From a phage, in NCBI GenBank assembly GCA_014686905.1, contig GCA_014686905.1_4093.1: a DNA stretch of 64,000 nucleotides. One strand, given 5' to 3'. Under the pieces are notes generated by a model, which saw only the letters and a list, made by a program, of their open reading frames with translations, was not told where the DNA came from and ran no database searches. Made by a program: the position numbers and the translations under genes. Shown here piece by piece: positions 1 through 53,585 of the stretch (within the stretch, counting starts at the first letter, position 1; each line of letters starts with the position of its first letter).

Positions 1-200
<200 letters not shown>

Positions 201-24112: not shown

Positions 24113-24496
24113 ATGGTTGATAAATGGAATAAGAAAGATCCATCACATGATGTTGATATTTCTGGTCTAGACAATGCACATAAGCACAAGTATCTAGATT
24201 CACTAGGTCTTCTAAAACCAGACCAAAGTCTTGCACATGATCGTCCATCCCGTGAAAAAGCATTTAGCCTAGAATCACTAGGTCATGAGCTTAATCGTGT
24301 GTTTGAGGATCACCCAATCTATGTACGTGATATTATCGAGAAACTTAAAGTAACTCCTAAAGAGCACTTTAAAGCAACAGTACACTCTGCATTCCGTGCA
24401 TTGCATGATTCTCTCAAGAAAACTCACAATCTTCGTAAAATTCATGATGAAATCGTGAATGCAATCGAAAGTGAAAAACATAAGTTCAAGAAGTAA
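24113..24496 (+). CDS. hypothetical protein (127 aa)
   Basis: ORF, SD AGGAG. Confidence 0.6.
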   Translation: MVDKWNKKDPSHDVDISGLDNAHKHKYLDSLGLLKPDQSLAHDRPSREKAFSLESLGHELNRVFEDHPIYVRDIIEKLKVTPKEHFKATVHSAFRALHDSLKKTHNLRKIHDEIVNAIESEKHKFKK

Positions 24497-24687: not shown

Positions 24688-24719
24688 GGTTGACTTCGGT
24701 CAGCCTTTTCTTTATACTA
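24688..24719 (+). terminator. terminator-promoter cassette
   Basis: GGTTGACTTCGGTCAGCC + T-run, -10 TATACT 18 nt after TTGACT. Confidence 0.6.
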
Positions 24720-24741
24720 TAAATATAGACATAGAGAAAAA

Positions 24742-38294: not shown

Positions 38295-38957
38295 ATGATG
38301 AAAACAAAATTAGGTTTGTTTTATAAAAATTATTTCGTTAAACAGCGTAAATTTATAAAAAAATATTTCTCTGGTGAGAAGTCTAGTCCTATAATTTTTA
38401 AAAGACCAAGTTATAATACTTACTTAGCTGGTGCTAAACAGTCTAAGAAATTTATTACTCTTTTAAATAAAAACAAAATTAAAGCTTCTTATGTTGAAAC
38501 GAGAAGAAACTCATCAATAACTCCTGGTGATTTTATTGAGTACGGATGTTTCAATATTAAGTACAATGATAATACATACTTTATGGATATTGATTGTAAT
38601 ACATCCAATCTTTTTAACATTGTAGTAAATCCATTAAAACAATATAATGTTTATGGTGATTCTATTATCAAATTAATCAAAAACAAAGATAGCTTTGATT
38701 TTGAAATAAATGTTTTAGATGATAATTTTGACGAAGTACCAGTAAACCCTGAAATCTGTGATATTTTAAACAGTTTAAAAGGTAGTACCTACAATATATC
38801 ATCTGATTTAATGTTTCAGTACTCATTAATCCATAAAGATATTGAAAAGTATATTGAATGCTCCAAAATTTTGAATTATCTTTACGATGAATTTAAAAAG
38901 AGTTCTAAAATAACTGCATACACTTTGTACAATATTCCTAAAATGGTGAATCTTTGA
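38295..38957 (+). CDS. hypothetical protein (220 aa)
   Basis: ORF, SD AAGGAG; 3' end converges on the RCC1 array. Confidence 0.55.
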   Translation: MMKTKLGLFYKNYFVKQRKFIKKYFSGEKSSPIIFKRPSYNTYLAGAKQSKKFITLLNKNKIKASYVETRRNSSITPGDFIEYGCFNIKYNDNTYFMDIDCNTSNLFNIVVNPLKQYNVYGDSIIKLIKNKDSFDFEINVLDDNFDEVPVNPEICDILNSLKGSTYNISSDLMFQYSLIHKDIEKYIECSKILNYLYDEFKKSSKITAYTLYNIPKMVNL

Positions 38958-40090
38958 CAAATACAGTACTGGCAACTCCACCGTCTGTAATATATTGTCC
39001 AGTACTGTAAATTTGTATACCATCGGTTAAGTAAGTTCTGTATAAAGTTGCTGTAACATATACGTTATTCATATTCATCTCTATTGGTAGTACACATTTG
39101 GTATAGGCCGACACATCTGTTTGTGTACCTATACCCAATTGACCTGCGTTATCGCCTGTGTTATAACCAGTTGCGTAAACACCTAATGAAGTTATAATAT
39201 GATTAGAAAAATATGAATAACCCACACTGCTTCTTATTATATCACCTGGTGCTTGTGTTGTTTGTCTTAACGAAATATATGTTTGTGATGTAGAACCATT
39301 TGCTAACTGACCAAAGTACTGTCCACCACCATGATATGCAAATAATTTATTAGTACTATTATTACTTGCTATAGCAAAAGCGAAGTAACTTGAGTTTGTT
39401 GTATAATCTTTCACCGTATAGGTATTAGTTATTTGAGAACATAACGTGTACTTTGAATATAACGTCATGTCGGTTGTACCTACGCCTGATATTGCACCAG
39501 TATAATACAATCTCCCATCGGTTCCAATAAATCCTTGCATAAGAAAATTTGCCAGTATTTTGGATGGTGTTACTCCAGTAGGTACTGTTCCTTGTACAAA
39601 TGATGAAAGTGAATCGGTACTTCTACCATTTCCCAGTTGTCCATAACTACCATAACCAGTATTCCATATCGTGTTGTCTGTACATAATACGCTTAATGCA
39701 CCTGCACTAACTGCAATTTGTTTTATTGTTTTTCCTAGGGCTGTTATTCTATCAAACACTATCTTTGCAGAAGCCCACGTAGTAGACTTATCAGTTGATA
39801 AACCCAATGATGCACCATTCCCAGCGTACCACATCGTATTATCTTTCTTTTTTATTAAAGTTGACTCATACCCGCACCCATATATCTTCTACGTTTGTAT
39901 TGCATAAAACCCATTGGGTCTGTGTTATAATATTACCTATACCCATTTGCCCAAACTCTTGAGAGCCTCTACTGTATAGTGTCCCGTCTGACATAAGGGC
40001 AAAAACTGTCGTATCAGATGAAGATATTTTGGTAACAGTAGGGGGTAGGTTCTTTTTTGATGATGTGATAATTCTTCCAAAGGGTAGCAT
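38938..40090 (-). pseudogene. RCC1-like repeat protein, paralog 1, interrupted by frameshift near 39870-39890
   Basis: N-part starts MLPFGRII and stops at 39866; RCC1-like body continues in another frame (track ORF 38938..39834); indel in a C-run. Confidence 0.6.
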
Positions 40091-40162
40091 TGTATCCTCC
40101 AAATGTAAATCGTTATTATATTTAGGACAAAAAAATGCCAGTACAAGGCACTGGCATAAAAT

Positions 40163-41332
40163 CTAAGCAGAAGGCATATCCTTCATTTTAATAAATGAAA
40201 ATTGTGTACCAGTATTTGTGGTTTGATCAGTAAAATATGAATTACTACCAGCCCAGTACAATTCATTATTAACTATACAATATATAACAGAACTCGAACT
40301 CTGTGAATACACACGACTTATATTTGATGGTTCTACTCCAGTACTGAACTGAACCGAACCCAACTGTGAACTTGGTATCACATCAGTTGGTCTACCTAAA
40401 CCATTAACACCAGCCCCACCACCACATGTATATACCCCAGTACTATCAGTTGATATATTAACATAACCATTTCCGGCATTTTCAAATAGTATTTCACTGG
40501 GAACAACACCAAATCCAGTAAGATCTATTTTCCTGAATGTAGTGTAAACAGTAGAACCACCAACACCTCTTCCACCATAATCATTAGAACCAGCCATATA
40601 GATACTATATCCAGAACTTCCTAAACATAATAACTGTACGTTGTCATATAATATTTGCATAGATATAACGTTATCAGGAATACTCAATACCGTAAAAGTA
40701 GTTAAAGAAGAACTTCCAATATTACTACCAACCGATGTTCCACATCTGTAGTACTTACCGCCTTTTATATAATGGAACGATGAACCGCCTAACTTATGTG
40801 CTCCTATTGTACTTACCCCAGTATCTATAAGAATGGGAGATACAACTTTGTTATTAACACCTAACTCAGATCTACTGTTCATACCGAACCCATATAAACG
40901 ACCATCTAACATCAATATTAGTGTACTACCGGAAGTACCCGCTGACGTAAATTCTATATTCTTTATTTGCGACACGTCAATACCTACAAATAATGAAGTT
41001 ACTTCAGTCCAGTTAACATATGAACCACTAGCCCCAAAATATCCACCCATGTATAGACCTGCACAATATAATTTATTATCAACAGTCTTTATTAATGTAC
41101 CGGATACACACGCCCAAAAATCATCAACTTCATAGGGTACATGTACCCAACCACCTAATACATCACTAGCATCCCCTGTACCTAATTTATAGTTCGAACC
41201 AGAACCACGCATGTACATATTCCCTGTACTATAAAGTAATCCGACATGTAATTGACTACCATCCAATTTCTTTATTTCAGGAAGAGTTGGTTTAATATTT
41301 CCGTACTTTAACATTCTTCCAAAAGGTAACAT
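40163..41332 (-). CDS. RCC1-like repeat (beta-propeller) protein, paralog 2
   Basis: MLPFGRMLKYGNI leader; G-x-N-x-x-GxLG repeats (GFGMNSRSELGVNN); SD GGAGAA. Confidence 0.75.
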   Translation of the reverse strand: MLPFGRMLKYGNIKPTLPEIKKLDGSQLHVGLLYSTGNMYMRGSGSNYKLGTGDASDVLGGWVHVPYEVDDFWACVSGTLIKTVDNKLYCAGLYMGGYFGASGSYVNWTEVTSLFVGIDVSQIKNIEFTSAGTSGSTLILMLDGRLYGFGMNSRSELGVNNKVVSPILIDTGVSTIGAHKLGGSSFHYIKGGKYYRCGTSVGSNIGSSSLTTFTVLSIPDNVISMQILYDNVQLLCLGSSGYSIYMAGSNDYGGRGVGGSTVYTTFRKIDLTGFGVVPSEILFENAGNGYVNISTDSTGVYTCGGGAGVNGLGRPTDVIPSSQLGSVQFSTGVEPSNISRVYSQSSSSVIYCIVNNELYWAGSNSYFTDQTTNTGTQFSFIKMKDMPSA

Positions 41333-41342
41333 AATTTTCTCC

Positions 41343-42522
41343 TTAAATTGGTGGCAATTGGTATTCAGTTAAAGTCCATGTACCAACAACTGTCCCTACT
41401 GGAGACATACCAGTGTAGTATAATTTGCCATTCACATATGCAAATAATGCATTGTCATTCGCAGCAACCAACGATGTTGACGGATCATAAACTACAGAAT
41501 TTGGAAATTGTGCTTGGACGAAAATTGAAGCATTATTAGATGAATTGTTACCAAGCTGTCCATAATTATTATACCCTGTTCCAAAAATACGACTTCCATT
41601 TCTATATAATAATCCCCTAGGATTTTGTGAATATGTTTGTATAAATTCAAAATCGGAAACATTAGTTAATTGTAAATAAGTACTTTGTGGCGTTAAAGAT
41701 ATCTTATTAGTATTAGATAGAACACCATTTCCTAATTGTCCGTGAATTTTGTGACCCTACACCATATAGCGGATAAGTATTATCTACATTAAGAACTATA
41801 CCCAACATATTGTTATATGAAATTATATCAACGGGGTACTGGCCTGTAGGAAAACTATACTTTGTCCAACTCGTCAAAGTATCAGTAGCAGAACCAGTTA
41901 ACAATGTACCAGTACTAGTTTTACCACATCTCCATGCTGAATTATCATTTTTAATTATCCAAGTTGGACTATTGAAAAATGAACTAACCTTTTTAACATT
42001 AATATTAACCTGTGTAAATGATGTAAGTGTAGATGAACTACTACCCAACTCATAGGTTGAATTATCACCTATTGCGTAAAGAACACTATCATTTGTTAGT
42101 AAAAACATATTACGAACATTTGGATATATCTCCTTGATATTATCCACATTAAAACCTGAAAAATAAGACGTACAATCAACAAATGTAGTACTTTGAACTG
42201 CACTAGATGTACCAGTCCAAAGGTTCCAACCTGCATAATAAAATTTATTATCATTGGTCTGAACTAAGCTATATGAAGCATTCCTTGTGCACCAAAAATT
42301 TTTCACATTTTGCATTAAGCGAACCCATTTGGTCTGTGTCGTTGTATTTCCAAGACCGAATATACCAGCATTGTTACCGCCAATACCCCACAAATCACCG
42401 TTCTTATACAGAATCATCAATGTGTTGTTGGTAAAAGCCGATGGTGCTTGCATTTTAATTACACTAGATTCATATATAGGTGCAATATTCCCGTACTTTA
42501 ACATTCTTCCAAAAGGTAACAT
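41343..42522 (-). pseudogene. RCC1-like repeat protein, paralog 3, frameshifted near 41740-41760
   Basis: N-part (track 41713..42600, true start MLPFGRML at 42522) ends ...RTIRKWCSI; body continues in shifted frame (HGQLGNG..., GTGYNNYGQLGNN) to stop at 41343. Confidence 0.6.
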
Positions 42523-42603
42523 AATTCCTCCTTTATTCATTATACTATATTTAATACAAATAAGAAAGCCAGCACTCTGTACTGGCTTTTTGATATACAT
42601 ACT

Positions 42604-43791
42604 TCATATACCCAATTTAATTGGCTCATATTGAAATAGTGTAGGATTGGAGTCAGGGTAGTTCACCACTTCTGTTCCTGGATATGCACCATACCCGTTG
42701 AATGCACCTGAACCATATACTATACCATCGGTGCTAATTAATGCAGAATAATTGTTTCCCATACCAACTGACAGTACTGTCATTGTTGATGTACCTTCTG
42801 GTAGGTTTATAACCTGCTCTCTGAAACTATTACCAGAAGCTGTTGGAACACTAAATCCTAATCTGCCATTGCTACTATTAGTAGAGCCAGTTGCATAACG
42901 TGTACCTGTACTCAAATCCTGAATCCAACACGATGGTCCTTGACCCTCTGGATCAGTCCAGTATCTAAAATTAGCACTATCGTATGTAAAGGGAAGAACT
43001 GCTAATCTGTTAGTTCCCTGGGAACCTGAAGTATACGTCAATCCATACAATGAAGTAAGCAAACCACGAACATATAATCCAGTACTCTTGGTGTATAACA
43101 ATGAGCCTCCTGAACCATCTGAATTGATTGAAAGGATATCAGTATCACCTATATTTGTGAATACCTTAATATCAGATGACCCCGATGTTAATCCATAATT
43201 ACCACAGAACCAAGCTGTGTTATCGTTCTTTAACACAACAACTGTTTCATAAGAACAGGTTACCACATCTTTACAGTTAGTATTGATTTGTACAAATTCA
43301 CCAATCTTCCCAGTTAGGGTATTATTACCAAACTGTCCACGGTTATTTGAACCCATAGCATATAATATTCCAGTACTATTCAATGCGTATATTGTACTAG
43401 TTCCTGGTGTTTCACGGCGTGTAATTGCAATCTTTGTAATAGTTCCTAATGTGCTGAAAAATGAACTCACATCAACGAAACTTGTTTGTGAACCTAATCC
43501 AAATTGACTTAAATTCCCCGCCGCCATATATCTTCCATCATTCATTAGACATATAGTATATGCTGGATGACAGTATATCATAGCTACATTTATAAGAACT
43601 AAGCTAGGCACTCCACCAACAATCGAAGTGGTTGGTGTACCAAAACGATACTCATTGTTTGACCCATATGCAAATAACTTACCATCAGTAGTTAAAAATA
43701 AATGCCCTAATCCATAAGTATTAATCTTGCGGATACCAGCGGGTGGTGGTATCTTATTCCCGTACTTTAACATTCTCCCAAAAGGTAACAT
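42604..43791 (-). CDS. RCC1-like repeat protein, paralog 4
   Basis: MLPFGRMLKYGNK leader; AMGSNNRGQFGNN, AYGSNNEYRFG repeats. Confidence 0.75.
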   Translation of the reverse strand: MLPFGRMLKYGNKIPPPAGIRKINTYGLGHLFLTTDGKLFAYGSNNEYRFGTPTTSIVGGVPSLVLINVAMIYCHPAYTICLMNDGRYMAAGNLSQFGLGSQTSFVDVSSFFSTLGTITKIAITRRETPGTSTIYALNSTGILYAMGSNNRGQFGNNTLTGKIGEFVQINTNCKDVVTCSYETVVVLKNDNTAWFCGNYGLTSGSSDIKVFTNIGDTDILSINSDGSGGSLLYTKSTGLYVRGLLTSLYGLTYTSGSQGTNRLAVLPFTYDSANFRYWTDPEGQGPSCWIQDLSTGTRYATGSTNSSNGRLGFSVPTASGNSFREQVINLPEGTSTMTVLSVGMGNNYSALISTDGIVYGSGAFNGYGAYPGTEVVNYPDSNPTLFQYEPIKLGI

Positions 43792-43799
43792 ATTCCCTC

Positions 43800-44975
43800 C
43801 TATTCCGGTAAAATCATTTTCTTCATTTTAACTTGTTGTGTACCTGCACTCTGTTCCTGGAACATAGAACCACTACCACACCAGTAAACCTCATTTGTCC
43901 CCACTAATGCGTATAACACACCGGAACCCCCCTGCTCTGCAAAAGCATTAACATCAAGTGCAGTATCTGAATCCTCAAATAGTACTGGATAGTACGCCGT
44001 TCTAGGTGTCGATGCAGTGATTTCTCTACCAAGAGCAACACCATTACCACATGTATACAATTTACCACCCTGTGTCATCGCAATCATATGAGAATTAATA
44101 CAAGAATTATTCAGTGATGCCGCATCTGGTACAATACCATAAATTGGAGGTGTAGCACTAAATGGACTCATTATTATACTGGTATCTCCATAACCAATAC
44201 CTAACGTATAATCGGTATTCGTCCCAGCACTATACACTCTAATAGTACCATTATATGATGTCAGTACTGAAGTCGCATTTGTAGTACATGCAATCCCTAG
44301 TACGGTTCCTGTGATATCTGTACTTACCGTAAATGTAGATAAAACAGAAGAGCTTGTTCCTAGGTTGTAGCGAGCATTACTCCCACATCTGTAGTACTGA
44401 CCATTTTTCACATAATGTAACGCCGCCGCACGGTCTGTGCCAGCAATTAAAGTAACACCTGTGTCAATCTTAAGTGCAGTTGATTGGATTCCAGAAACGC
44501 CTAATACACCACCACCATTACGACCTATACCATATAAGTCCCCGTTGCTTAACAAAATTAATATAGCACCATTGGAAATTGTAGTCTCAGTATAAGCTAT
44601 GTTTTGTATAGTACTAAGTGCAGGTATTGAGGATAAATTAGATGTAATATTAGTCCATCCAGGTACGCTCGCTGCAACTACACCAACATAACCCAATTGT
44701 CCAGCTAAGTATAATTCACCACTTGTAGTAAGTATAATAGTCGCGTAAGTTAAGCACCAAACATCAGCAACGCTATATTGGCACTTAACCCAACCATTCT
44801 GTACGAATCCAGTACTGTCATTTCCTAACTTATACTCACCACCATTCCCACGTAGATATAAATTTCCATTATCGAATAACATCCCAACGTGACTAATGGA
44901 AGTACTAATTTTCTTCACACCAGCACGTTTGGGTATAGTATTCCCGTACTTTACCATTCTTCCAAAAGGTAACAT
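43800..44975 (-). CDS. RCC1-like repeat protein, paralog 5
   Basis: MLPFGRMVKYGNT leader; YGIGRNGGGVLGVSG repeats. Confidence 0.75.
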   Translation of the reverse strand: MLPFGRMVKYGNTIPKRAGVKKISTSISHVGMLFDNGNLYLRGNGGEYKLGNDSTGFVQNGWVKCQYSVADVWCLTYATIILTTSGELYLAGQLGYVGVVAASVPGWTNITSNLSSIPALSTIQNIAYTETTISNGAILILLSNGDLYGIGRNGGGVLGVSGIQSTALKIDTGVTLIAGTDRAAALHYVKNGQYYRCGSNARYNLGTSSSVLSTFTVSTDITGTVLGIACTTNATSVLTSYNGTIRVYSAGTNTDYTLGIGYGDTSIIMSPFSATPPIYGIVPDAASLNNSCINSHMIAMTQGGKLYTCGNGVALGREITASTPRTAYYPVLFEDSDTALDVNAFAEQGGSGVLYALVGTNEVYWCGSGSMFQEQSAGTQQVKMKKMILPE

Positions 44976-45045
44976 ACTTCCCTCCTTTATTCATTATACT
45001 ATATTTAATCAAAAAGAAAAGCCAGTACTCTGTACTGGCATAATT

Positions 45046-46188
45046 TCAATAAACATCCCAAGGTAATGGTGTCTTCCTAAATCCATACCTGGTTGTGGTT
45101 GCACCATCACCAGCAATGTATCTACCGATGCCACATTGGTATAACTCCGTACTACTACATATAGCACCACCAATAGTACCACTACTCCACTGAATTATAT
45201 TAGAATATGTTATTGGCAAATCACTACATTTAGTATATACACCAACGGTAGCAGCACCACTAATACCACCAAACATACTTCGGTTAGCACCAGTATAATA
45301 TATACCATCTGGACTCATAAATGCAGAGGTGTAAGTTGTACTACAATCCACTGGACTTCTTATAGTATTAAGATCGCCTGGGTATGTTCTAGCAGCATAT
45401 ACGTAAACATTACCATCAGTAGTAATACCATTGCCCAACTGACCACTGTTCTGACCACCACACGTAACTAACGATGCAGAACCAGAAACAATTGCAGTAG
45501 CATTATACGAAGTACCCATTGCAATAGAAGCACCAGACAATAGTTTTGGGGTAACGATAGCTGTTGTATTACCCTGGCCTAATTCACCATTTGTGTTTCG
45601 TCCCCATGCGTATATAGAAGTCGTATCCAATCGACATAGTACTGAACCATAACTAAACGTATATCGCATGTCATTTACAGCAGAAGGCAAATTAACCTTA
45701 GTTGCAACACTAATAACACCACCAGTAACACCACTGTTTGCGTTCATGTTACGACCATATGCATATAAAGAACCATCTGAAGTTTTAATATGCATCATAC
45801 CATCTGTGCAATATAATGCATCGATGCTATCCACCGCAACCGGACCCATACTGGCAGTTATATCGGTCCACCCAAGAGTAGTAGTACTAGAAATTAAGTT
45901 ATTTCCTGCGTAAAGGATTCTATTATTATTAGTAACTACCACTGTATATCTAGCAGTAACTCCAATTAATCGAACATCAGTATATATCTTAGACCACGCA
46001 CCTAGTGAATTGGTATTTGCATCCAAAAAGCCTAACTGCCCATCTGTATTGTATCCAATACCCCATGCATCACCTGCACTGTCCAATAACACTTCATGTG
46101 AAAAGCCAATCTTAAAATCTTTTATTGTAGGAACTACTGGAACTGGTGCAATATTCCCGTACTTAACCATTCTTGCAAAAGGTAACAT
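45046..46188 (-). CDS. RCC1-like repeat protein, paralog 6
   Basis: MLPFARMVKYGNI leader; WGIGYNTDGQLGF, YAWGRNTNGELGQGN, CGGQNSGQLGNG. Confidence 0.8.
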   Translation of the reverse strand: MLPFARMVKYGNIAPVPVVPTIKDFKIGFSHEVLLDSAGDAWGIGYNTDGQLGFLDANTNSLGAWSKIYTDVRLIGVTARYTVVVTNNNRILYAGNNLISSTTTLGWTDITASMGPVAVDSIDALYCTDGMMHIKTSDGSLYAYGRNMNANSGVTGGVISVATKVNLPSAVNDMRYTFSYGSVLCRLDTTSIYAWGRNTNGELGQGNTTAIVTPKLLSGASIAMGTSYNATAIVSGSASLVTCGGQNSGQLGNGITTDGNVYVYAARTYPGDLNTIRSPVDCSTTYTSAFMSPDGIYYTGANRSMFGGISGAATVGVYTKCSDLPITYSNIIQWSSGTIGGAICSSTELYQCGIGRYIAGDGATTTRYGFRKTPLPWDVY

Positions 46189-46194
46189 AATTCC

Positions 46195-46253
46195 CCTCCT
46201 TATTCATTATACTATATTTAATACAAATAAGAAAGCCAGTATCAAGTACTGGC
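46195..46253 (-). promoter_or_regulatory. representative module: upstream terminator hairpin + -35-less promoter + SD
   Basis: On - strand: GCCAGTACTTGATACTGGC hairpin, T-rich, TTAAATATAGTATAATGAATAAGGAGG, then ATG; repeated before most paralogs. Confidence 0.5.
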
Positions 46254-46260
46254 CTATATT

Positions 46261-46929
46261 TTAGACTGAATTGTTAGGATAATATCTCCCACGTCCCCAT
46301 ATTATTCGCACAGCACCACCACTACCAGCACCACCATTATATGAACCATCGTATCTACCGCCAATACCATTAGCACCTTGAACAATGATACCAGTACCAC
46401 CACCCGTACCAATGAACGAGGTATTATAGAATGCACCACCACCACCGCCGCCGCCAGCACCATTTTCACCAGTGATTGCATCTCCGTTACCACCTTTACC
46501 AGTGTAGCCACCAGCACCACCACCAATGACTGCACCACCACTTACACCAGCGTTGCCCCCATTACCACCACCATCATTAATAGCGTTAGCAGCTTTCCCA
46601 CCTAGTCCACCAACCCTATATTCACCAGTGAAGCTAACACATAGTTTTTCAGTTCCACGATATAAACCGTTTTCAACTGCTGTAGTAGTGTTGGGATGTG
46701 TAAGAGAAACACTTAAGTACTCACCACTAGTAACCGGAATATTATTACGCCACGATAAGCCGCCACCAGCACCACGTTGACCACCCGGCGAAATAACACA
46801 TACTGATATTTCGGTAACGCCAGCAGGAACTGTAAATTGTGTTGTTCCTATTGTCGTGATTAATTGTTCACCATCTGGCTTATATTCAATTTTATTCCCG
46901 TACTTTACCATTCTTCCAAAAGGTAACAT
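46261..46929 (-). CDS. Gly-rich protein sharing the MLPFGRM leader (paralog 7, divergent body)
   Basis: MLPFGRMVKYGNK leader, then Gly-rich low-complexity body (GGNGGNAGVSGGAVIGGGAGG...). Confidence 0.7.
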   Translation of the reverse strand: MLPFGRMVKYGNKIEYKPDGEQLITTIGTTQFTVPAGVTEISVCVISPGGQRGAGGGLSWRNNIPVTSGEYLSVSLTHPNTTTAVENGLYRGTEKLCVSFTGEYRVGGLGGKAANAINDGGGNGGNAGVSGGAVIGGGAGGYTGKGGNGDAITGENGAGGGGGGGAFYNTSFIGTGGGTGIIVQGANGIGGRYDGSYNGGAGSGGAVRIIWGRGRYYPNNSV

Positions 46930-47000
46930 ACTTCCTCCTTTATTCATTATACTATATTTAATACAAATAAGAAAGCCAGTACTTTGTACTGGCGAAATTA

Positions 47001-48191
47001 TTACAATTGTCTAGGTGTATCCAGAACATATCTATTTGTACTAGGTCCACCATCATCATACGTTCCGGTTGAATATATATTTTTCATATCAGCAGTTAGA
47101 AAAGTACGATACGAACCGCGATATATTTTTATTTTATCATACATAGAATATGATATTTCTGCTGGCATTGGACATATAGTAAATCTACCAATAGTAACAT
47201 TAGAACCAACACCTAATGTACCAGCATAACCACTCGCATTTAAACCAGTTGCATATACACCTGTACTCGTAACTAGTATACTAGATTGTGCTGCATATCC
47301 AGTATGGATTGAATAATAAGTTCCTGATGGTAATGTAGTACTATTATTCCCTAATACTGCTAGTGCTGTACTATTCGTAGTGTTATTACCCCATGCCCCA
47401 TTATTAGCGTTACCACCTACTAGGAACTGACGTGCTCCTGTACTTGGATTCTCTACTAAAGCACTGACAGCACCAATTGAACAACCAGTATATTGTAATG
47501 TTTTTGTATATGTGGTACTTGGCTTATACAAAGTATATTCATTAAATGGTGTCCATGTGGTACTAGTACTTATGCCAGATGTACTACCACCAATATATAA
47601 ATTATTTTGTGTATCAAAAAACATTACACAGTAATTTGTTGACTGTATTTGTGCAATATCTACATCTGGTGTTACCGCTTTAACAAATGAACCATCTGAT
47701 ATTTGATAAGTAGTTCCTGTACCATCTGCGAATTGTCTAGCACTATTCCACCCTGTACTCCATATTGTATTATTATCCATTAAGAAAGTAAACCACGTAG
47801 TACCTGCATACATCTGTTTAATTGAAGTACTTGAACTTTGTGTGTACAAATTTTCAATATATTGGTTATAACTTAAAAATGATGTAGTACTAGTTTCTAA
47901 ACCAATATGACTACCATATCCACAATAAAAATAATTTAAGTCCTTATCTTGAACTAACAAAGTTCCTTGTGTCATCCAGCAATCTTTGACATTTTCTCTA
48001 ATTAATGTCCACGACCTTACTGCATTATTATTTCCTCTACCAAACTTCCCAAAACTATTACTGCCTCGTGCGTATAGTTGACCATCAGTATAAAGTACAA
48101 CAACATCAGTATCAGTTGGTATTATTTTCTTAATTTGTAGTGGTACAGGCACAATATTCCCATAATTCATCATTCTTGCAAAAGGTAACAT
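47001..48191 (-). CDS. RCC1-like repeat protein, paralog 8
   Basis: MLPFARMMNYGNI leader; YARGSNSFGKFGRGNNN. Confidence 0.75.
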   Translation of the reverse strand: MLPFARMMNYGNIVPVPLQIKKIIPTDTDVVVLYTDGQLYARGSNSFGKFGRGNNNAVRSWTLIRENVKDCWMTQGTLLVQDKDLNYFYCGYGSHIGLETSTTSFLSYNQYIENLYTQSSSTSIKQMYAGTTWFTFLMDNNTIWSTGWNSARQFADGTGTTYQISDGSFVKAVTPDVDIAQIQSTNYCVMFFDTQNNLYIGGSTSGISTSTTWTPFNEYTLYKPSTTYTKTLQYTGCSIGAVSALVENPSTGARQFLVGGNANNGAWGNNTTNSTALAVLGNNSTTLPSGTYYSIHTGYAAQSSILVTSTGVYATGLNASGYAGTLGVGSNVTIGRFTICPMPAEISYSMYDKIKIYRGSYRTFLTADMKNIYSTGTYDDGGPSTNRYVLDTPRQL

Positions 48192-48244
48192 AATTCCCTC
48201 CTTTATTCATTATACTATATTTAATACAAATAAGAATGCCAGTA

Positions 48245-49432
48245 TCAAGTACTGGCATTGATTGTTGGAAGTGGGAACTCTTTCATGACAGATGAACTAC
48301 TTGCTGAAATATTATCAGGGGATTTCCCCGCGTAGTATAATTTATTATTAATGTACATATACAACGTTGCATCGTTCCCAGCTACAAGTGATTCACTTTT
48401 CTTAAAATTAACACCATCAGGTAAAATTGCTTCAACAAATGAACCAGAATTAATTGTACTGTTATTTGCCAATTGACCATTGTTATTATAACCAGTACTA
48501 TAAATTTTACCAGAGCTATAATATACCAGGCCACGGGATGAGATGTTTTCAATTCGAATGAATTCACTATCATCTGGAACGGTTTTCGATAACGTTGGCG
48601 TTAATTTATAACCCCCTGCTGTAGTATTATTACCCAACTGACCATCAGCTTGATAGCCCATTGTATACATAGGACATGATTCTGGTGTACCTTTAGTTAT
48701 AATACCAATATAACTCGCACTACAAAAAACGTCTATAGCTTCGGTAACAGGTGTGCCCTTATATTGAACCCAAGGAAATATATATGTGTTTTGAACTCCA
48801 TTTCCCAACGTTCCATGAGATGTTGTCCCAGTACGCCATATTGTATTATCTAGTTTAATAATCCAGTTAGAGGGTGTGATGGATGAACAGAATTTTTTAA
48901 CATTATCGACTAAAAATGTAAATTTATTAAAATATGATGCAGTGTTTAAACCAAACTTTGAATTTTTATTATCACCTAACAAATATAAACTATTATCAGT
49001 ACCTAAAATCAAAGCATAATCAAGACCTACATATATCTCTTTGATTTTTGAAATACCAAATTGTGTAAAATAACTCGTACATTCAGTGAATGTTGTTACA
49101 GTATTTGTTGTATTATTACCTAGCCATTTATCTAAACCACTATAAAAGAATCTATCATCATTTGTTCGTATTAGACAAAACCCATTCCCTGTACTGCACC
49201 AAAAATCTTTAACATTGCTATATATTTTTGTCCATTCAGTAACCTGTGTAGTATTCCCTAACCCAAAAATTCCACCATTCTGAAGACCCATAGCCCACAC
49301 TGATCCATTTACATCCAGCAGCATTGTGCATGTAAATGAATAACCAACTGCTGGGGTGACTAATTTAGTAAAATTGGGAACATATGGAATGACTTTATTC
49401 CCGTACTTAACCATTCTTGTAAAAGGTAACAT
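48245..49432 (-). CDS. RCC1-like repeat protein, paralog 9
   Basis: MLPFTRMVKYGNK leader (track ORF extends upstream through promoter); MGYQADGQLGNN, YSTGYNNNGQLANN. Confidence 0.75.
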   Translation of the reverse strand: MLPFTRMVKYGNKVIPYVPNFTKLVTPAVGYSFTCTMLLDVNGSVWAMGLQNGGIFGLGNTTQVTEWTKIYSNVKDFWCSTGNGFCLIRTNDDRFFYSGLDKWLGNNTTNTVTTFTECTSYFTQFGISKIKEIYVGLDYALILGTDNSLYLLGDNKNSKFGLNTASYFNKFTFLVDNVKKFCSSITPSNWIIKLDNTIWRTGTTSHGTLGNGVQNTYIFPWVQYKGTPVTEAIDVFCSASYIGIITKGTPESCPMYTMGYQADGQLGNNTTAGGYKLTPTLSKTVPDDSEFIRIENISSRGLVYYSSGKIYSTGYNNNGQLANNSTINSGSFVEAILPDGVNFKKSESLVAGNDATLYMYINNKLYYAGKSPDNISASSSSVMKEFPLPTINAST

Positions 49433-49502
49433 AATTCCTCCTTTATTCATTATACTATATTTAATCAAAAAATAAAAACCAGTATCAAGTACTGGCTTTA
49501 AT

Positions 49503-50651
49503 TCATTGTATAAATGACATATCAACTTCGGTATATCTTGTAGTGTACTGCCCAGAACTTCCACCCATTACTAGATTGGAAAAACCAGTATAAAATAACT
49601 TCCCTTCATCTGTGAGAATCAAACTACCGATGTTATTCAGTACTAAACTGTAAGAACTATTAAAATTTTCATAAGACTTGGTATAATAGAACTGATTTGT
49701 AAGATTACCAACACCCAATTGCCCACCAGTGTTAACCCCAGATGCAAATATTGTAGTCCCAAATCTGAGAATATGTGAAGCCATATTACCAACACAACAG
49801 TATATATTCTGTACATCCGAATTCAATAAAGTTGGTGTTGTGTATTGCTTAAGTGTTGTGCCTGTGCCGAATTCATTACCATATGATACTCCATATTGTG
49901 TACCACAAGCGTACAATTTATTATCATCTTTAATAAAAAATGTACTCTGATAACTTACATCGACATCTATAACATTAGTCTGTATTCTAACAACACCAGT
50001 ACTAGCAGTTTGATTGCCTGTCCCTAACTGATAGTAAGTGTTAATACCACAACCCCATAATGTATTATCTTCTTTTAGGTATATGTTACCAACAGCTTTT
50101 TTTACCGATGATATGGCTTCAATCTTAACAAAGGCGTTAAATGAATTTGTATTTGTGCCATTACCAAAAGATGATCTGGTTGATGTGCTGTTTGTTCCGC
50201 AGCAATATAAAGTACCATCAGTTGTTATCAAATTCACTTTAAGATCACTGTAACTACTCATGTATTTTATATCAGAAACATTAATACCACTGGATGTTAT
50301 CCATGAAGTACAATCTGTCCACGTGTTATAATATGCACCTGAACCAGAAAACGCACTCGGACTTCCAGTTATAAACACTTTTCCAGTACCGTCTTCTTCA
50401 TATAATTGACAACCACTACTGTTATTTTCCAAAAGGACTCTTTTAACATTAGTCGCACTAAGAATAAATTTACTCGACGCTACACCAGTTCCAGTACCCT
50501 GACTGACTGCCGCTGATGCATACAAATTTTTCGTGTATGTATCATGAAAATACATAGCACTACCGCCGGAATATATTTTAAAACGTGTACTAGGATCAGG
50601 CGGGTTAGGTGCAATATTTCCGTACTTAATCATTCTTCCAAAAGGTAACAT
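49503..50651 (-). CDS. RCC1-like repeat protein, paralog 10
   Basis: MLPFGRMIKYGNI leader; WGCGINTYYQLGTGNQ, FASGVNTGGQLGVGN. Confidence 0.8.
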   Translation of the reverse strand: MLPFGRMIKYGNIAPNPPDPSTRFKIYSGGSAMYFHDTYTKNLYASAAVSQGTGTGVASSKFILSATNVKRVLLENNSSGCQLYEEDGTGKVFITGSPSAFSGSGAYYNTWTDCTSWITSSGINVSDIKYMSSYSDLKVNLITTDGTLYCCGTNSTSTRSSFGNGTNTNSFNAFVKIEAISSVKKAVGNIYLKEDNTLWGCGINTYYQLGTGNQTASTGVVRIQTNVIDVDVSYQSTFFIKDDNKLYACGTQYGVSYGNEFGTGTTLKQYTTPTLLNSDVQNIYCCVGNMASHILRFGTTIFASGVNTGGQLGVGNLTNQFYYTKSYENFNSSYSLVLNNIGSLILTDEGKLFYTGFSNLVMGGSSGQYTTRYTEVDMSFIQ

Positions 50652-50722
50652 ATTTCCCTCCTTTATTCATTATAGTATATTTAATACAAATAAGAATGCC
50701 AGTATCAAGCACTGGCATTATG

Positions 50723-51832
50723 TTATTTTGGTAAATCAATTTTAGTAAAGACTGCAACATCCTCGATTGCACCTGGAATGGCGTAATACGATCCAGTACT
50801 ATACACATCTCCATTTTTGGTTAATATCGATGTCAAACCATCACTAAAAAGAACATCTCTAATCTCACTAACTTCAACGGGTAATTGTAAATTGGTAGCA
50901 CTATATATAGCACCAGTTTGAGAATTGTTTAATCCCAAACCACGGTTCGCCCCAACACCCTTCTGATATGTACTAGTAATTACCATTTGTGTAGCAGTAT
51001 TTAATGCAGGTGAATTCGTCATAAACAACGGAGAACTATTAGGCAAAGTACTTACAGGAACTGCACGGAATGTAGTCGTACCTGAACTAAGAAAGTTTGG
51101 AGTTTGACCACATACGAAATATGATGTACCATTATAGTAATTTAATGCATTACCACCAATGGCTGCATCGATTACACCAGAACTACGCAATCCCCAAGTG
51201 TTAATTTGTGTTTGGTTCCCCGTACCATGCTGCCCACTACTATTCCATCCAGAACTATATAGCTTATTATCTAATGTAAGATACATACTATCATTCGCAT
51301 TGGTCATTACTTTACGAACGTTCGTAGCACATTGAGTTAATGTATAAATTGATGATGAACCAATACCCAAAGAACCACGATATCCATTATCTCCTGCACC
51401 ATAGAGTACTGAATTAGTGCTAAGTACAAATATTAAACCATTTGTACATACAATATTAGCAATTTCACTTACTGGTATAGCATTGGTAAACCAATTAGTC
51501 CTTTCAACTAATACAGTACTGTAAGAAGTAGTCGTAGAAGATGAGAACCAGTACGTTTGACCTGATGTCCATATAGTATTATCATTTTTAATAATAACAA
51601 GTGTACGATCACCCACGAAAAAATTAGAAACATCTGCACTTACTAATATCCATGAAGATACCGTGTTGGTATTACCATTTCCAGATTCACCACCTTGATT
51701 TCTACCTATGTAATATAAATCATGTGAATCAGTCAATAAGAATTGACCTTGTGTAGAAGCACCAACTTTAATTATATTTTTAGGACCAGGTACAATATTT
51801 CCGTACTTAACCATTCTTCCAAAAGGTAACAT
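50723..51832 (-). CDS. RCC1-like repeat protein, paralog 11
   Basis: MLPFGRMVKYGNI leader; LYSSGWNSSGQHGTGNQ, YGAGDNGYRGSLGIG. Confidence 0.75.
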   Translation of the reverse strand: MLPFGRMVKYGNIVPGPKNIIKVGASTQGQFLLTDSHDLYYIGRNQGGESGNGNTNTVSSWILVSADVSNFFVGDRTLVIIKNDNTIWTSGQTYWFSSSTTTSYSTVLVERTNWFTNAIPVSEIANIVCTNGLIFVLSTNSVLYGAGDNGYRGSLGIGSSSIYTLTQCATNVRKVMTNANDSMYLTLDNKLYSSGWNSSGQHGTGNQTQINTWGLRSSGVIDAAIGGNALNYYNGTSYFVCGQTPNFLSSGTTTFRAVPVSTLPNSSPLFMTNSPALNTATQMVITSTYQKGVGANRGLGLNNSQTGAIYSATNLQLPVEVSEIRDVLFSDGLTSILTKNGDVYSTGSYYAIPGAIEDVAVFTKIDLPK

Positions 51833-51905
51833 AAATCCCTCCTTATTCATTATACTATATTTAATACAAAAAAGAAAAGCCAGCATCAAGTACTGGCATA
51901 TCAAA

Positions 51906-53054
51906 TCACTGCAAAAATGACATATCGACTTCGGTATAATTAAGAACGTTCTGTCCAGCAATACCTCCCATTACTACAATTGAAGCCCCACAATAATATA
52001 ACTTCGAAGTGTCAGTAAGTATAAGTGAACCAGATGGGGTGCGTACCAAATTACACGAAGTATTAAACGAAGTATATGAAGGGGTATAAGAGTACTGATT
52101 AATATTATTACCAACACCTAATTGACCAGACGAGTTGCTTCCAGATGCATAAAGTACTTCATCACCTTTAACTATATGTGACGCCATGTTACCAACACAA
52201 GTATATAAACTATAAACTCCTGAACTCAATAATGTTGGAGTTTTGTATTGTATATCTGTAGATGAAGAAGTACCACCTGTGCCAAATTCGTTCCCGTATT
52301 GTGCACCGAACTGTTTACCACATGCGTACAAATTATTATCTGATTTAATAAAAAATGTACTCTGATAACTTACATCAAAATCTATAACATCCGAAGCAAT
52401 CATCGTCACCCCAGTAATAGAAGTTTGATTACCTGTACCTAACTGATAGTAATAGTTAAAACCACAACCCCATAAAGTATTATCTTCTTTTAGGTATATG
52501 TTACCAACTGCCTTTTTAACCGAAGTTATAGTATCTACCCTTTTGAATGTGTTAAAAGAATTAATGTTTGTACCATCACCAAATGATGATAGGTTAGAGT
52601 TATTGTTAGCTCCACAACAATACAATGTACCATCGTTTGTTATCAAATTTACCTTCATATCATTAAAACTACTCATGTATTTTATATCAGAAACATTAAT
52701 ACCACCTGATGTTATCCACGTAGTACATTCCGTCCACAAAGTTTTTCTATCAGTTACACCAGTGAATGCCTTCGTGTTACCAGTGATAAAAACTTTTCCA
52801 GTACCTTTCTCTTCATACAATTGACAATCACTACTGTTATTTTCCAATAGAACTCGTTTAACATTCTCCGCACTAAGAATAAATTTACTCGACGAAACAC
52901 CTGTTCCAGTACCCCAATTCGTCGCAGAAGATGCATACAACTTATCAGTATAAGTATCATGAAGATACATGGAATCACTGGAATATATTTTAAAACGTCC
53001 ATCATCACCAGGGGCAATATTCCCGTACTTAATCATTCTAACAAAAGGTAACAT
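51906..53054 (-). CDS. RCC1-like repeat protein, paralog 12 (close duplicate of paralog 10)
   Basis: MLPFVRMIKYGNI leader; long blocks near-identical to 49503..50651. Confidence 0.8.
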   Translation of the reverse strand: MLPFVRMIKYGNIAPGDDGRFKIYSSDSMYLHDTYTDKLYASSATNWGTGTGVSSSKFILSAENVKRVLLENNSSDCQLYEEKGTGKVFITGNTKAFTGVTDRKTLWTECTTWITSGGINVSDIKYMSSFNDMKVNLITNDGTLYCCGANNNSNLSSFGDGTNINSFNTFKRVDTITSVKKAVGNIYLKEDNTLWGCGFNYYYQLGTGNQTSITGVTMIASDVIDFDVSYQSTFFIKSDNNLYACGKQFGAQYGNEFGTGGTSSSTDIQYKTPTLLSSGVYSLYTCVGNMASHIVKGDEVLYASGSNSSGQLGVGNNINQYSYTPSYTSFNTSCNLVRTPSGSLILTDTSKLYYCGASIVVMGGIAGQNVLNYTEVDMSFLQ

Positions 53055-53102
53055 ATTTCCCTCCTTATTCATTATATCATATTTACCCCATAAAGAAAAC
53101 CC

Positions 53103-53131
53103 TTGACATCCTTTCAGTACTGGTGTACTAT
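53103..53131 (+). promoter_or_regulatory. sigma70-like promoter TTGACA-N17-TACTAT for small-ORF array
   Basis: TTGACA 53103-53108, TACTAT 53126-53131, SD AAGGAG before ATG 53157; divergent from RCC1 array. Confidence 0.5.
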
Positions 53132-53584: not shown

Positions 53585-53585
53585 T

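Follow-up and report, generated by a model that had tools for sequence, protein, structure and literature searches.

A repeated unit in the RCC1-like gene array

Why does nearly the same DNA stand before one gene after another in a phage gene array whose coding sequences have little in common? The 64-kb stretch analyzed here (the window) comes from an Asteriusvirus (121Q/PBECO4-like) jumbo coliphage. Its minus strand carries, at 38938..53054, an array of 12 genes with the common N-terminus MLPFGRM.KYGN, which encode 11 RCC1-like β-propeller proteins and one Gly-rich protein (46261..46929). The genes, named here by the positions of their ATG codons (53054, 51832, 50651, 49432, 48191, 46929, 46188, 44975, 43791, 42522, 41332 and 40090), all open with ATG(T/C)TACC(T/C)TTT. 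The RCC1-like array proteins are virion-associated in the relative phAPEC6, in whose virions eight array proteins and gp077 were detected by mass spectrometry (PMC7247149, Table 1); this evidence comes from the relative, with few peptides per protein.

Almost every gene of the array is preceded by the same unit of ~110 bases, in which a putative terminator hairpin, a T-rich tract, a promoter-like element, a ribosome site and a 12-residue conserved start follow in this order. An earlier note on this DNA had described such a module in about ten inter-gene gaps, and this is borne out by eight full copies and two variants; the two remaining genes have only a ribosome site. The full module consists of the hairpin, the T-rich tract, TTAAATATAGTATAATGAATAA(A)GGAGG and ATG. 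The 17-mer TATAGTATAATGAATAA occurs seven times exactly, once with one mismatch and once with two, the last being the variant at gene 53054; these nine best matches all lie on the minus strand within 42.5-53.1 kb, and up to three mismatches yield 15 matches (2.0 expected). The module is present in 43 phage records at 412 places.

All copies in the array lie on the minus strand. That of gene 51832 (51797..51899) comprises the hairpin (51899..51877, -10.9 kcal/mol), a U-rich tract, TAAATA (51863..51858), TATAAT (51854..51849), GGAG (51842..51839), the ATG and 12 conserved codons. At gene 50651 (50616..50718) the hairpin (50718..50696, -12.6 kcal/mol) has one G.U wobble, and TAAATA (50683..50678) is followed by TAC, not TAG, before TATAAT (50674..50669) and GGAG (50661..50658). 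The copy of gene 49432 (49397..49498) has the hairpin at 49498..49476 (-11.9 kcal/mol), TAAATA at 49463..49458, TATAAT at 49454..49449 and GGAG at 49441..49438. In that of gene 48191 (48156..48258), the hairpin loop (hairpin 48258..48236, -13.0 kcal/mol) holds the TGA stop of the preceding gene (48247..48245); TAAATA (48223..48218), TATAAT (48214..48209) and GGAG (48201..48198) follow. The Gly-rich, non-RCC1 cassette 46929 is served in the same way (module 46894..46993; hairpin 46993..46973, -12.6 kcal/mol; TAAATA 46960..46955; TATAAT 46951..46946; GGAG 46938..46935), as are genes 46188 (46153..46255; hairpin 46255..46233, -11.8 kcal/mol; TAAATA 46220..46215; TATAAT 46211..46206; GGAG 46199..46196), 44975 (44940..45041; hairpin 45041..45019, -12.4 kcal/mol; TAAATA 45007..45002; TATAAT 44998..44993; GGAG 44985..44982) and 42522 (42487..42588; hairpin 42588..42566 with one U.G wobble, -15.3 kcal/mol; TAAATA 42553..42548; TATAAT 42544..42539; GGAG 42531..42528).

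The variants precede the first and last genes. At gene 53054 (53019..53085) the promoter region reads TAAATATGATATAATGAATAAGGAGG and has no upstream hairpin of the module type; TAAATA (53085..53080), TGA and TATAAT (53076..53071) follow one another, so that TGA-TATAAT makes an extended -10 (TGnTATAAT, TGATATAAT). This copy stands back to back with the canonical sigma-70 promoter of plus-strand gene 53157 (TTGACA-17-TACTAT, 53103..53131). At gene 40090 (40055..40157) the hairpin (40157..40135, -14.4 kcal/mol) and U7 are followed by CCTAAATATAATAACG, in which TAAATA (40124..40119) overlaps TATAAT (40120..40115), then by a longer leader and GGAGG (GGAG 40100..40097). Genes 43791 and 41332 have no module, and their translation is coupled to that of the gene upstream. 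Co-transcription of paralogs 5-4 and 3-2, as the earlier note had it, matches the sequence, because the only element of 43791 and 41332, a Shine-Dalgarno site, overlaps the upstream stop.

We think it fairly probable that each module is a composite gene joint, which also serves as a recombination patch. A 7-8 bp hairpin followed by UUUCUUAUUU would end the transcript of the preceding gene. A T4-type late promoter with the core box (A)TTAAATA and the A/T-rich downstream segment TAG-TATAAT would start transcription ~6-7 nt past the box, inside TATAAT, giving a leader of ~20 nt. The strong ribosome site GGAGG and the ~12 codons for MLPFGRM.KYGN would complete the joint.

The conserved start

The conserved block runs on for ~40 nt into the coding sequence. 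This extension was overlooked in the earlier note, as were the invariant TAAATA and the terminator nature of the hairpin and T tract. Between paralogs, identity is 83% over the module and 87% over the opening 42 coding nt, but only 46% (nucleotides) and 20.6% (amino acids) over the gene bodies. Distant phages keep M(L/I)PFxR..YGN with synonymous differences, which indicates conservation at the protein level. In structure predictions (β-propeller model, pTM 0.72) residues 1-13 have pLDDT <50, and the first ~12 codons, MLPFGRM.KYGN, are predicted to form a flexible extension ahead of the propeller. This segment is probably a shared docking or virion-incorporation tag.

The TAAATA box as a putative late promoter

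Whereas the earlier note placed the promoter core at TATAAT, constraint is strongest 3 bp upstream, at TAAATA, which is invariant in 62 of 62 distinct copies from seven phages (the window, 121Q, UB, JP4, slurp01, WPEC3 and EJP2). Among the AT-only hexamers of the window, moreover, none is more depleted than TAAATA (32 seen, 138 +/- 12 expected, o/e 0.23; next-lowest, 0.65), and ATAAATA is seen 5 times (46 +/- 7 expected). TATAAT, on the other hand, is common and not depleted there (164 seen, 140 expected). The modules hold 10 of the 32 TAAATA sites, and three of the five ATAAATA sites precede, by 16-36 nt, genes matching PHROG 'virion structural protein' families. Plus-strand reference late boxes ATAAATA are found within TATAAATA (24070..24076), 36 nt upstream of virion-protein gene 24113..24496, and within TATAAATATAG (24719..24725), 16 nt upstream of virion-protein gene 24742..26295. 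The same composite, as a putative promoter outside the array, AATAAATA-CGT-TATAAT (8014..8029, minus strand), stands 22 nt upstream of gene 6837..7991, the only minus-strand gene outside the array, whose product is a virion structural protein orthologous to phAPEC6 gp077. The window has 10 occurrences of TAAATA-N3-TATRAT (0.17 expected), all of them before the array, gp077 or gp274c. Among phAPEC6 genes, (T/C/A)ATAAATA is carried by those for the capsid, protease and baseplate and by other late genes; for relatives, a gp55-like sigma and the late motif ATAAATA were reported earlier (PMC5259590).

T4 late promoters lack a -35, allow variation at -13/-12 and are AT-rich in the segment downstream, and by the T4 rule only late transcription uses either strand (PMC2988020). 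The module likewise combines the absence of a -35 with an A/T-rich downstream segment, and sigma-70 promoters confined to the plus strand together with TAAATA genes on the minus strand fit the either-strand rule. These features suggest that the module promoter is a T4-type late promoter, active at late times, with TAAATA as its late box. Against such a reading, the module box is ATTAAATA, not the (T/C/A)ATAAATA of clear late genes in this phage group, and nearly every copy deviates at -12. The fixed spacing to TATAAT is likewise not predicted by the T4 paradigm: across genera, TATAAT (or TATGAT, TATATT) stays exactly 3 nt from the box and retains T-12, A-11 and T-7, and TAAATA with this spacing to TATAAT or TATATT is kept in Salmonella phage Munch and Erwinia phage Hallingskeid, where the leaders differ. 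A sigma of the sigma-70 family could therefore use TATAAT as a real -10.

Sigma factors and the missing -35

The best -35 match 16-18 bp from TATAAT reaches 3/6 in all eight full copies, and the alternative reading CTGGC(A/T)-16 to 18-TATAGT (17 in most copies) gives 2-4/6, so the earlier note's remark that no -35 is recognizable holds. Its absence is meaningful because canonical promoters abound on the other strand: 18 of the type TTGACA/TTGACT/TTGCAA-16..18-TATAAT-like precede plus-strand genes of the window, and none was found on its minus strand. With this contrast, dependence on a phage factor, proposed in the earlier note, appears the best reading.

T4-type late promoters are read by the host RNA polymerase core with a phage gp55-like late sigma. 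By analogy, the factor expected for the TAAATA box would be a gp55-like late sigma, of which phAPEC6 gp237c is an example (PHROG late-sigma E-values 3e-154 and 8e-18); the corresponding gene lies outside the window. Homologs of gp33 and gp45 were not found according to the CBB paper, and gp33 orthologs have been reported in this phage group (PMC7824862); since the two differ on gp33, the late machinery is only partly characterized.

The earlier note's candidate, the RpoD-like phage sigma at 12788..13753 (plus strand; Pfam regions 2, 3 and a weak partial region 4; PHROG 351), is a real sigma, but nothing was found that links it to the module and it is probably not the factor. Were it so, TATAAT would be the -10 of a -35-less promoter with middle, not late, expression, and TAAATA at -21 to -16 perhaps an upstream extension contacted by sigma region 3. 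We regard this as unlikely, though its gene lies in the early region, so that the protein would be made before it is needed, the 3-nt spacing is conserved, and the enriched composite could define a separate promoter class. A hypothetical start 7 nt after TATAAT would, in the window, coincide with the first G of GGAGG or precede it by 1 nt, and in Hallingskeid lie inside the ribosome site. Four copies read TATAAC, without the critical T-7, and two of these precede an intact 379-aa gene. Moreover, the avoidance concerns TAAATA and not TATAAT, and other virion genes are marked by TAAATA without TATAAT. From a sigma with region 4 still present, use of a -35 would be expected. The promoter class proposed in relatives outside the early and late classes has the -35 TGAAACG (PMC5259590), which the module lacks and which shows no enrichment in the window.

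Less probable still is that the module serves host sigma-70 alone as a weak promoter, constitutive or early, through TATAAT and A/T-rich upstream DNA or through TATAGT and a weak -35, CTGGC(A/T), in the 3' arm of the hairpin. TATAAT is a perfect consensus hexamer, a consensus scan returns CTGGCA-17-TATAGT and CTGGCA-17-TATACT with 9/12 matches, and the first module, at gene 53054, has its true extended -10. Nevertheless, the internal modules lack TG at -15/-14, and their poor -35 matches vary among copies, whereas the 18 sigma-70 promoters of this phage have near-consensus -35 boxes. The virion association of the gene products (PMC7247149) also speaks against this explanation, which leaves the invariance and genome-wide avoidance of TAAATA unaccounted for. 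The observation in the earlier note is confirmed and its interpretation partly supported.

The hairpin as a putative terminator

The hairpin had been given as GCCAGTAC-loop-GTACTGGC. Every copy folds, but the literal stem is exact in two only; the others show either a 7-bp stem around a CTTGA loop or G.U wobbles. Folding energies lie between -10.9 and -15.3 kcal/mol (z between -3.4 and -6.7), and a U-rich tract follows each hairpin. A terminator scan gave 19 sites (6.8 expected), including all module hairpins. In the 62 distinct copies the seven core stem pairs are ~99% paired (slid controls, 20-44%), and the stem changes are G.U wobbles that pair in the minus-strand RNA only (18 cells) or compensatory changes (GC to AU in seven, CG to UA in one). 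The hairpin is thus conserved as RNA. Together with the T tract, it is likely to be an intrinsic terminator of the preceding minus-strand gene, lying outside the promoter. The U tract is interrupted, which suggests that termination would be only partial and perhaps weak.

Cassette exchange

The order of the cassettes differs among five phages that are ~97% identical elsewhere. Megablast segments break off at the hairpin (-68 to -74) and at +35 to +47. On the 5' side of the promoter core the sequence tracks the upstream cassette (88.6% vs 64-66%), and on the 3' side the downstream cassette (95.9% vs 81-83%). Genome comparison thus shows whole-gene swaps between related phages, with junctions that appear to lie inside the module. 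Since ~110 nt are nearly identical before very different genes, the modules may also be homology patches: recombination would keep the copies alike (concerted evolution) and would move, add or remove whole cassettes between related phages. The module type goes with the genome and not with the cassette, and such cassette shuffling accounts better for the likeness of the copies than promoter constraint alone.

An enzyme-mediated, integron-like exchange, in which the hairpin acts mainly as DNA, as a protein-binding or site-specific recombination site built on the CAGTAC/AGTACT word, seems very improbable beside general homologous recombination. The hairpin arms are CCAGTAC and GTACTGG, AGTACT is 10-fold and CAGTACTG ~60-fold over-represented in the window and relatives, the cassette junctions map to the hairpin and T-tract region, and cassette M is flanked on both sides by hairpins with the same loop variant. 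But the single-sided stem changes pair only in minus-strand RNA; they would leave a DNA cruciform with mismatches and disrupt any palindromic binding site. The stem always has its U-rich tract, no gene for a recombinase was seen beside the array, and 110 nt of near-identity suffices for homologous recombination. That the repeats are functionless leftovers of recent tandem duplication, the origin proposed for such arrays (PMC7247149, citing Hua et al.), is scarcely credible and already contradicted by the compensatory stem changes, by near-identical modules beside bodies so far diverged, by retention at 412 places in 43 phage records and by a module core kept across genera.

In the composite-joint reading, the module resembles in its behavior the promoter-stem-loop (PeSL) recombination joints of T4-like phages, given the diverged bodies, the near-identical modules, the differing gene order and the junctions inside the module. 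Unlike those of T4-like phages, it would combine the stem-loop with a late promoter and a coding N-terminus.

A hypervariable array of virion-protein genes

By megablast, the window is placed among the Asteriusvirus jumbo coliphages (121Q, PBECO4, slurp01, phAPEC6, and others). Positions 8000-30000 have full-length matches at ~97% identity in more than 30 records, whereas the array region at 40000-53200 is covered to 50% at most by any record, and only piecewise; the neighboring region is covered to 100%. The array is therefore a hypervariable island within an otherwise conserved genome. It comprises 12 genes on the - strand, from 38938 to 53054, which open with ATG(T/C)TACC(T/C)TTT and encode proteins beginning with MLPFGRM. 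The typical products belong to one family of ~390 aa (~40 kDa) and are virion-associated; eight array proteins were detected by mass spectrometry in phAPEC6 virions (PMC7247149). RCC1 repeats scored above threshold in the paralogs tested, an assignment based on Pfam rather than on a fold search, since the structure model of one paralog has only medium confidence (pLDDT 65). The exception is a Gly-rich protein of 222 aa (46261-46929, - strand), which is without RCC1 repeats and matches PHROG 4474 (unknown function); its gene has the same module and MLPFGRMVKYGN start as the RCC1-like array genes. Array members in the relative EJP2 are annotated as BNR-repeat proteins. Thus, the N-terminal tag and the module are common to different folds.

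The tag is conserved far beyond the protein bodies. M1, L2, P3, F4, R6, M7, Y10, G11, and N12 are invariant in nine paralogs with ~21% body identity, and M(L/I)PFxR..YGN is kept at the protein level in the more distant phages Munch and Hallingskeid, where the differences are synonymous. In the AlphaFold model of one paralog (pTM 0.72), residues 1-13 have pLDDT values below 50; the tag is thus predicted to be unstructured and to precede an all-beta domain.

Two of the array genes are interrupted. In the one that starts at 42522 (41345-42522, - strand), a stop comes after 269 aa, and RCC1-like coding resumes in another frame. The last gene (38938-40090, - strand) consists of a 74-aa ORF (40090..39866) followed ~30 nt downstream by a 298-aa ORF (39834..38938). 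Both splits also occur in 121Q, UB, JP4, and slurp01, so they are conserved features rather than sequencing errors. Directly after the array, at least six tightly packed ORFs of 60-75 aa lie at 53157-54411 (+ strand), with 10-20 such ORFs in the relatives JP4 and WPEC3; these may be another tandem paralog family. A tRNA-Thr gene with anticodon TGT is situated at 1434-1507 (+ strand).

A repeated module precedes the array genes

The module, a unit of ~110 nt that runs from a hairpin through a U-rich tract, TAAATA, TATAAT, and GGAGG into the first ~12 codons, was described in part by the earlier note, and its description of a repeated unit is borne out by the counts in the window: eight array genes have a full module, two have a variant, and two (the 43791 and 41332 genes) have only a Shine-Dalgarno (SD) site, which overlaps the upstream stop. 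Seven copies have an exact match to the 17-mer TATAGTATAATGAATAA. Every copy folds into a hairpin, although the literal hairpin sequence given in that note is exact in only two. The note missed the ~40-nt coding extension, the probable terminator formed by the hairpin and T tract, and the invariant TAAATA element 3 bp upstream of TATAAT. Among published descriptions, the GenBank record of UE-S1 tags a single module copy as repeat_region, terminator, and RBS only, and a literature search on Asteriusvirus promoters and transcriptomes, covering the phAPEC6, Sharanji, and fEgEco12 papers, turned up no account of the module. In Rfam, no family matches the module; two chance hits, both caused by the hairpin, are far below threshold.

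The hairpin as a probable intrinsic terminator

The hairpins of the module copies have folding energies of -10.9 to -15.3 kcal/mol (z of -3.4 to -6.7 versus shuffles) and were also caught by a terminator scan. Directly 3' of each stem lies UUUCUUAUUU, UUUUCUUUUU, or U7, a tract interrupted by C or A in most copies. Pairing was counted in an alignment of 62 distinct copies of the module, drawn from the window and six relatives. Across these copies the seven core stem pairs are ~99% paired. Single-sided changes are G.U wobbles (18 cells), which pair only in the - strand RNA, and eight changes are compensatory (GC to AU seven times, CG to UA once). When the partner was slid by 1-3 columns as a control, pairing fell to 20-44%. 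Such a pattern is typical of an RNA structure in the coding-strand transcript and is not expected of a protein-bound DNA palindrome. The hairpin and U tract together have the features of an intrinsic terminator, and this part is more certain than the account as a whole. In one case, the TGA stop (48245-48247, - strand) of the gene starting at 49432 sits in the hairpin loop, and the 5' arm of that terminator is therefore translated.

The hairpin arms (CCAGTAC/GTACTGG) and several early-promoter spacers contain an AGTACT-type word. AGTACT itself is 10-fold in excess over the 64 kb (224 sites vs ~22 expected), and CAGTACTG occurs at 56 sites in the window vs 0.85 expected; a literature search on the latter returned nothing relevant. 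These sites (for example 22-29, 15196-15203, 30126-30133, and 53115-53122) are found in all three frames, in genic and intergenic sequence, and are evenly spread. Elsewhere in the genome of a relative, and also in Munch and Hallingskeid, the word is 6-12-fold over-represented. No other palindromic hexamer exceeds 1.6-fold. Six palindromic hexamers (ACCGGT, AGCGCT, AGGCCT, CAGCTG, CCATGG, and CCCGGG) are at zero on both strands, with 3-19 expected for each, which is consistent with restriction-site avoidance.

A probable late-type promoter without a -35 element

TAAATA is invariant in all 62 module copies; within TATAAT, TA is invariant and the other positions are conserved in at least 90%. The TATAAT variants include TATGAT in three EJP2 copies and TATAAC in four copies, of which two precede an intact 379-aa gene. 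In the divergent array of EJP2, in Salmonella phage Munch, and in Erwinia phage Hallingskeid, TAAATA-N3-TATAAT (or TATATT) is kept and the leader and hairpin details are altered. TAAATA is the most depleted AT-only hexamer in the window (32 sites vs 138 +/- 12 expected, o/e 0.23; the next lowest is 0.65), ATAAATA is rarer still (5 vs 46 +/- 7, o/e 0.11), and TATAAT is slightly enriched. The depletion extends to other parts of a relative's genome and to other genera.

Modules account for 10 of the 32 TAAATA sites in the window. Genes 24113, 24742, and 7991(-) each have an ATAAATA 16-36 nt upstream, which makes up three of the five such sites; all three genes match PHROG "virion structural protein" families, and mass spectrometry identified the products of their phAPEC6 orthologs, gp037c, gp035c, and gp077, as virion components (PMC7247149 Table 1). 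Within the structural region of phAPEC6, (T/C/A)ATAAATA is present 16-50 nt upstream of the starts of capsid, scaffold/protease, baseplate, and other genes.

The T4 late promoter has an 8-bp TATA box at -10, an AT-rich downstream segment, and no -35 element, and its box TATAAATA is used by gp55, gp33, and the sliding clamp; among T4-type variants, A at -13 is frequent, and -13/-12 differ in Aeh1 (PMC2988020). The module box ATTAAATA, with T at -12, matches TATAAATA at six of eight positions and is followed by TAGTATAAT, in which eight of nine bases are A/T. A start 6-7 nt after TAAATA would give an ordinary leader of ~20 nt; a start 7 nt after TATAAT would hit the first base of GGAGG or the nucleotide before it in the window, and would fall inside the ribosome site in Hallingskeid. 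In T4, late transcription can proceed on either strand, and the early and middle classes are confined to one (PMC2988020). Since all 18 canonical sigma-70 promoters in the window are on the + strand and the TAAATA-bearing genes are the - strand ones, these genes fit the T4 strand rule. A predicted ATAAATA late motif and a gp55-like sigma have been reported for the related jumbo phages CBB and GAP32 (PMC5259590), and phAPEC6 gp237c matches the late-sigma PHROG 12791 and PHROG 234. A gp55-type sigma was not found within the window; the late-sigma PHROG matches are those of the relative phAPEC6. Judged from these sequence features, the module promoter reads as a variant of the T4-type late promoter, which would explain the missing -35 element without a new mechanism. 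The identity of the sigma factor is less certain than the overall account.

The absence of a -35 element, asserted in the earlier note, was upheld: the -35 position of the modules is occupied by the U tract and hairpin arm and varies between copies, with a best TTGACA-like match of 3/6 at 16-18 bp. The note suggested that this promoter depends on a phage factor, possibly the sigma encoded at 12788. That protein is a genuine RpoD-like sigma, and nothing links it to the module. The idea nevertheless retains some probability, because a fixed TATAAT 3 bp after the box is unexplained by the late-promoter reading. Of the 10 occurrences of TAAATA-N3-TATRAT in the window (vs 0.17 expected), nine belong to the array and the remaining one precedes the gp077 ortholog; in 150 kb of phAPEC6 the composite is restricted to the array and to sites upstream of gp077 and gp274c, the latter also a virion protein. 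Plain late promoters without the downstream TATAAT also exist in this phage group. The fixed TATAAT may be a second, overlapping -10 element for host sigma-70 or an RpoD-like sigma, or a special initiation region. Neither a canonical -35 nor an extended -10 is present in the internal modules, which have TAG-TATAAT in place of TG at -15/-14; only the first module (53079..53071) has TGA-TATAAT. GGCTTTC, picked out by eye as a possible MotA box, is separated from TATAAT by 19 nt, which exceeds the 11-13 nt spacing of T4 middle promoters. The TGAAACG -35 of the "divergent RpoD-like" class of CBB and GAP32 is absent from the module and occurs five times in the window vs 6.9 expected.

Other promoter types were also observed. 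TGnTATAAT (often TRTGATATAATG) without a -35 precedes several non-array genes of phAPEC6 (gp237c, gp246c, gp263c, and gp279c; 210566 region, - strand), the late-sigma gene gp237c among them, and may represent a middle promoter class; TGNTATAATR occurs 11 times in the window vs 5.2 expected. A third repeated promoter family, AAAGTACTTGCAA-N16-(G)CGTATAAT, is located at 59744-63000 (+ strand) before small genes at ~59825, 60505, 61867, 62090, 62586, and 62907, with a GGGGAA..TTCCCC or GCGGGAA..TTCCCGC hairpin in the leader.

Cassette shuffling at the module

Within the window, paralog bodies have 20.6% amino-acid and 46% nucleotide identity, compared with 83% for the 72 nt upstream and 87% for the first 42 coding nt. 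The 21% identity of the bodies rules out recent duplication as the only explanation. When cassettes that share 85% or more of their nucleotides across 800 nt or more are given the same letter, the gene order is D A K I B E C L J F G H in the window, D P A M B E K C Q F R H in 121Q, N A I B E C S J F G O H in UB, D A I B T E C L J F G O U in JP4, and N V W X A M D B Y C Z G H in slurp01. Cassettes have thus been gained, lost, and relocated among the five phages; K and D, for example, are at different positions.

The exchanged segments have their borders in the module. Array-to-array megablast segments begin at the hairpin, at -68 to -74, and stop at +35 to +47. With alignment-based identities, used because one-base indels make position-by-position mismatch counts misleading, module halves 5' of the promoter core are 88.6% identical when the upstream cassette is shared and 64-66% identical otherwise; 3' of the core the values are 95.9% with a shared downstream cassette vs 81-83%. 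The module type tracks the genome or position, not the cassette. The EJP2 ortholog of D (80% amino-acid identity) bears an EJP2-type module, and cassette G has a full module in its WPEC3 ortholog and none in the window. From these comparisons, the module would be best described as doubling as a recombination site in a hypervariable array, and cassette shuffling, too, is regarded as more certain than the account as a whole.

A second module is present on the + strand, at 21263, 24505, 24688, 26306, 27384, 31879, 32462, 33161, and 34575 (seven exact and two variant copies vs 0.01 expected in the window). It has the hairpin GGGTTGACTTCGGTCAGCCC, whose 5' arm contains a TTGACT -35, then TTTTTGC, then TATAAT as the -10; the two promoter elements are 18 nt apart. 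The unit looks like a classic PeSL, the promoter-early stem-loop of T4-like phages, in which a terminator overlaps a sigma-70 early promoter. At 24690-24725 (+ strand), before the virion gene 24742..26295, a TTGACT-17-TATACT early-type promoter in a PeSL-like hairpin unit is overlapped by a perfect late box TATAAATA, which suggests both early and late expression of this gene.

Overall interpretation

Taken together, the module is probably a joint of terminator, late promoter, RBS, and N-terminal tag that doubles as a recombination site. A quite different proposal is that the array is an integron-like cassette platform whose promoters form a dual-sigma class timing accessory virion proteins. 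The hairpin, built of the hyper-abundant CAGTAC/AGTACT, would be a dedicated recombination or protein-binding site for cassette capture and exchange, and TAAATA-N3-TATAAT would be read by a gp55-like sigma and a sigma-70-family sigma. We regard this proposal as very improbable.

The account of the module as a terminator, late promoter, and tag joint would explain how a jumbo phage can maintain a large and rapidly changing repertoire of virion-associated beta-propellers that are individually expressed and freely exchangeable: because each cassette carries its own terminator, late promoter, RBS, and common tag, any of them should work wherever recombination puts it. It would carry the PeSL idea beyond the early ORFans of T4-like phages, both into late structural genes and into a phage of 350 kb. 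The account also offers sequence rules for Asteriusvirus late transcription, namely a TAAATA core avoided elsewhere and a subclass with TATAAT 3 bp downstream. The module could serve for the insertion and expression of foreign proteins in Asteriusvirus phages, and the variable array is a candidate host-interaction determinant in phages considered for therapy.

Comparison with known systems

Like intrinsic terminators, the module has a G+C-containing stem of 7-10 bp, a loop of 3-5 nt, a U-rich tract, a location at gene 3' ends, and RNA-type conservation. It differs in the interrupted U tract (UUUCUUAUUU), in a stem made of CAGTAC, a word hyper-abundant genome-wide, and in the stop codon inside the loop in one case.

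The protein products recall the internal-protein (IP) locus of T-even phages and its capsid targeting sequence (PMC3012670; Repoila et al. 1994, cited in PMC4122927). In both, diverse virion proteins have only a short N-terminal sequence in common and the locus is reshuffled between relatives. The array proteins, however, are beta-propellers of ~40 kDa, with the inner body, the capsid hairs, and the tail hairs as candidate locations in the virion, and by this analogy a capsid-targeting or cleavage role for the N-terminal 12-mer is only a candidate.

As in the T4 late promoter and the CBB/GAP32 motif, a single short A/T box without a -35 is followed by an A/T-rich segment. The box also resembles T4-type late boxes in preceding virion genes on either strand, in being avoided elsewhere in the genome, and in belonging to a phage group that encodes a gp55-like sigma. 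In contrast, T at -12 in ATTAAATA deviates from TATAAATA, and only the module, unlike T4 late promoters and the plain late promoters of the group, has a consensus TATAAT fixed 3 bp downstream.

The PeSL and PmSL (promoter-middle stem-loop) elements of T4-like phages combine a terminator stem-loop, promoter, SD, and start codon between genes of the hyperplastic region (Arbiol et al. 2010, PMC2839356; Comeau et al. 2014, PMC4122927). The module is likewise a small repeated composite of these parts, and junctions of whole-gene insertion, deletion, replacement, and displacement between close relatives fall within the units. However, its putative promoter is a -35-less TAAATA followed by TATAAT, rather than a sigma-70 early promoter with -35 and -10 (PeSL) or a MotA-box middle promoter (PmSL); its conserved unit reaches ~40 nt into the coding sequence; its genes are not small ORFans but encode a single family of virion-associated proteins of ~390 aa; and its carrier is a 350-kb Asteriusvirus. 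Without the -35/-10 early promoter, the module is not a strict PeSL, but it is PeSL-like in architecture and behavior. It is best seen as a variation on known kinds, the T4-type late promoter and the PeSL-like element, rather than as a new mechanism.
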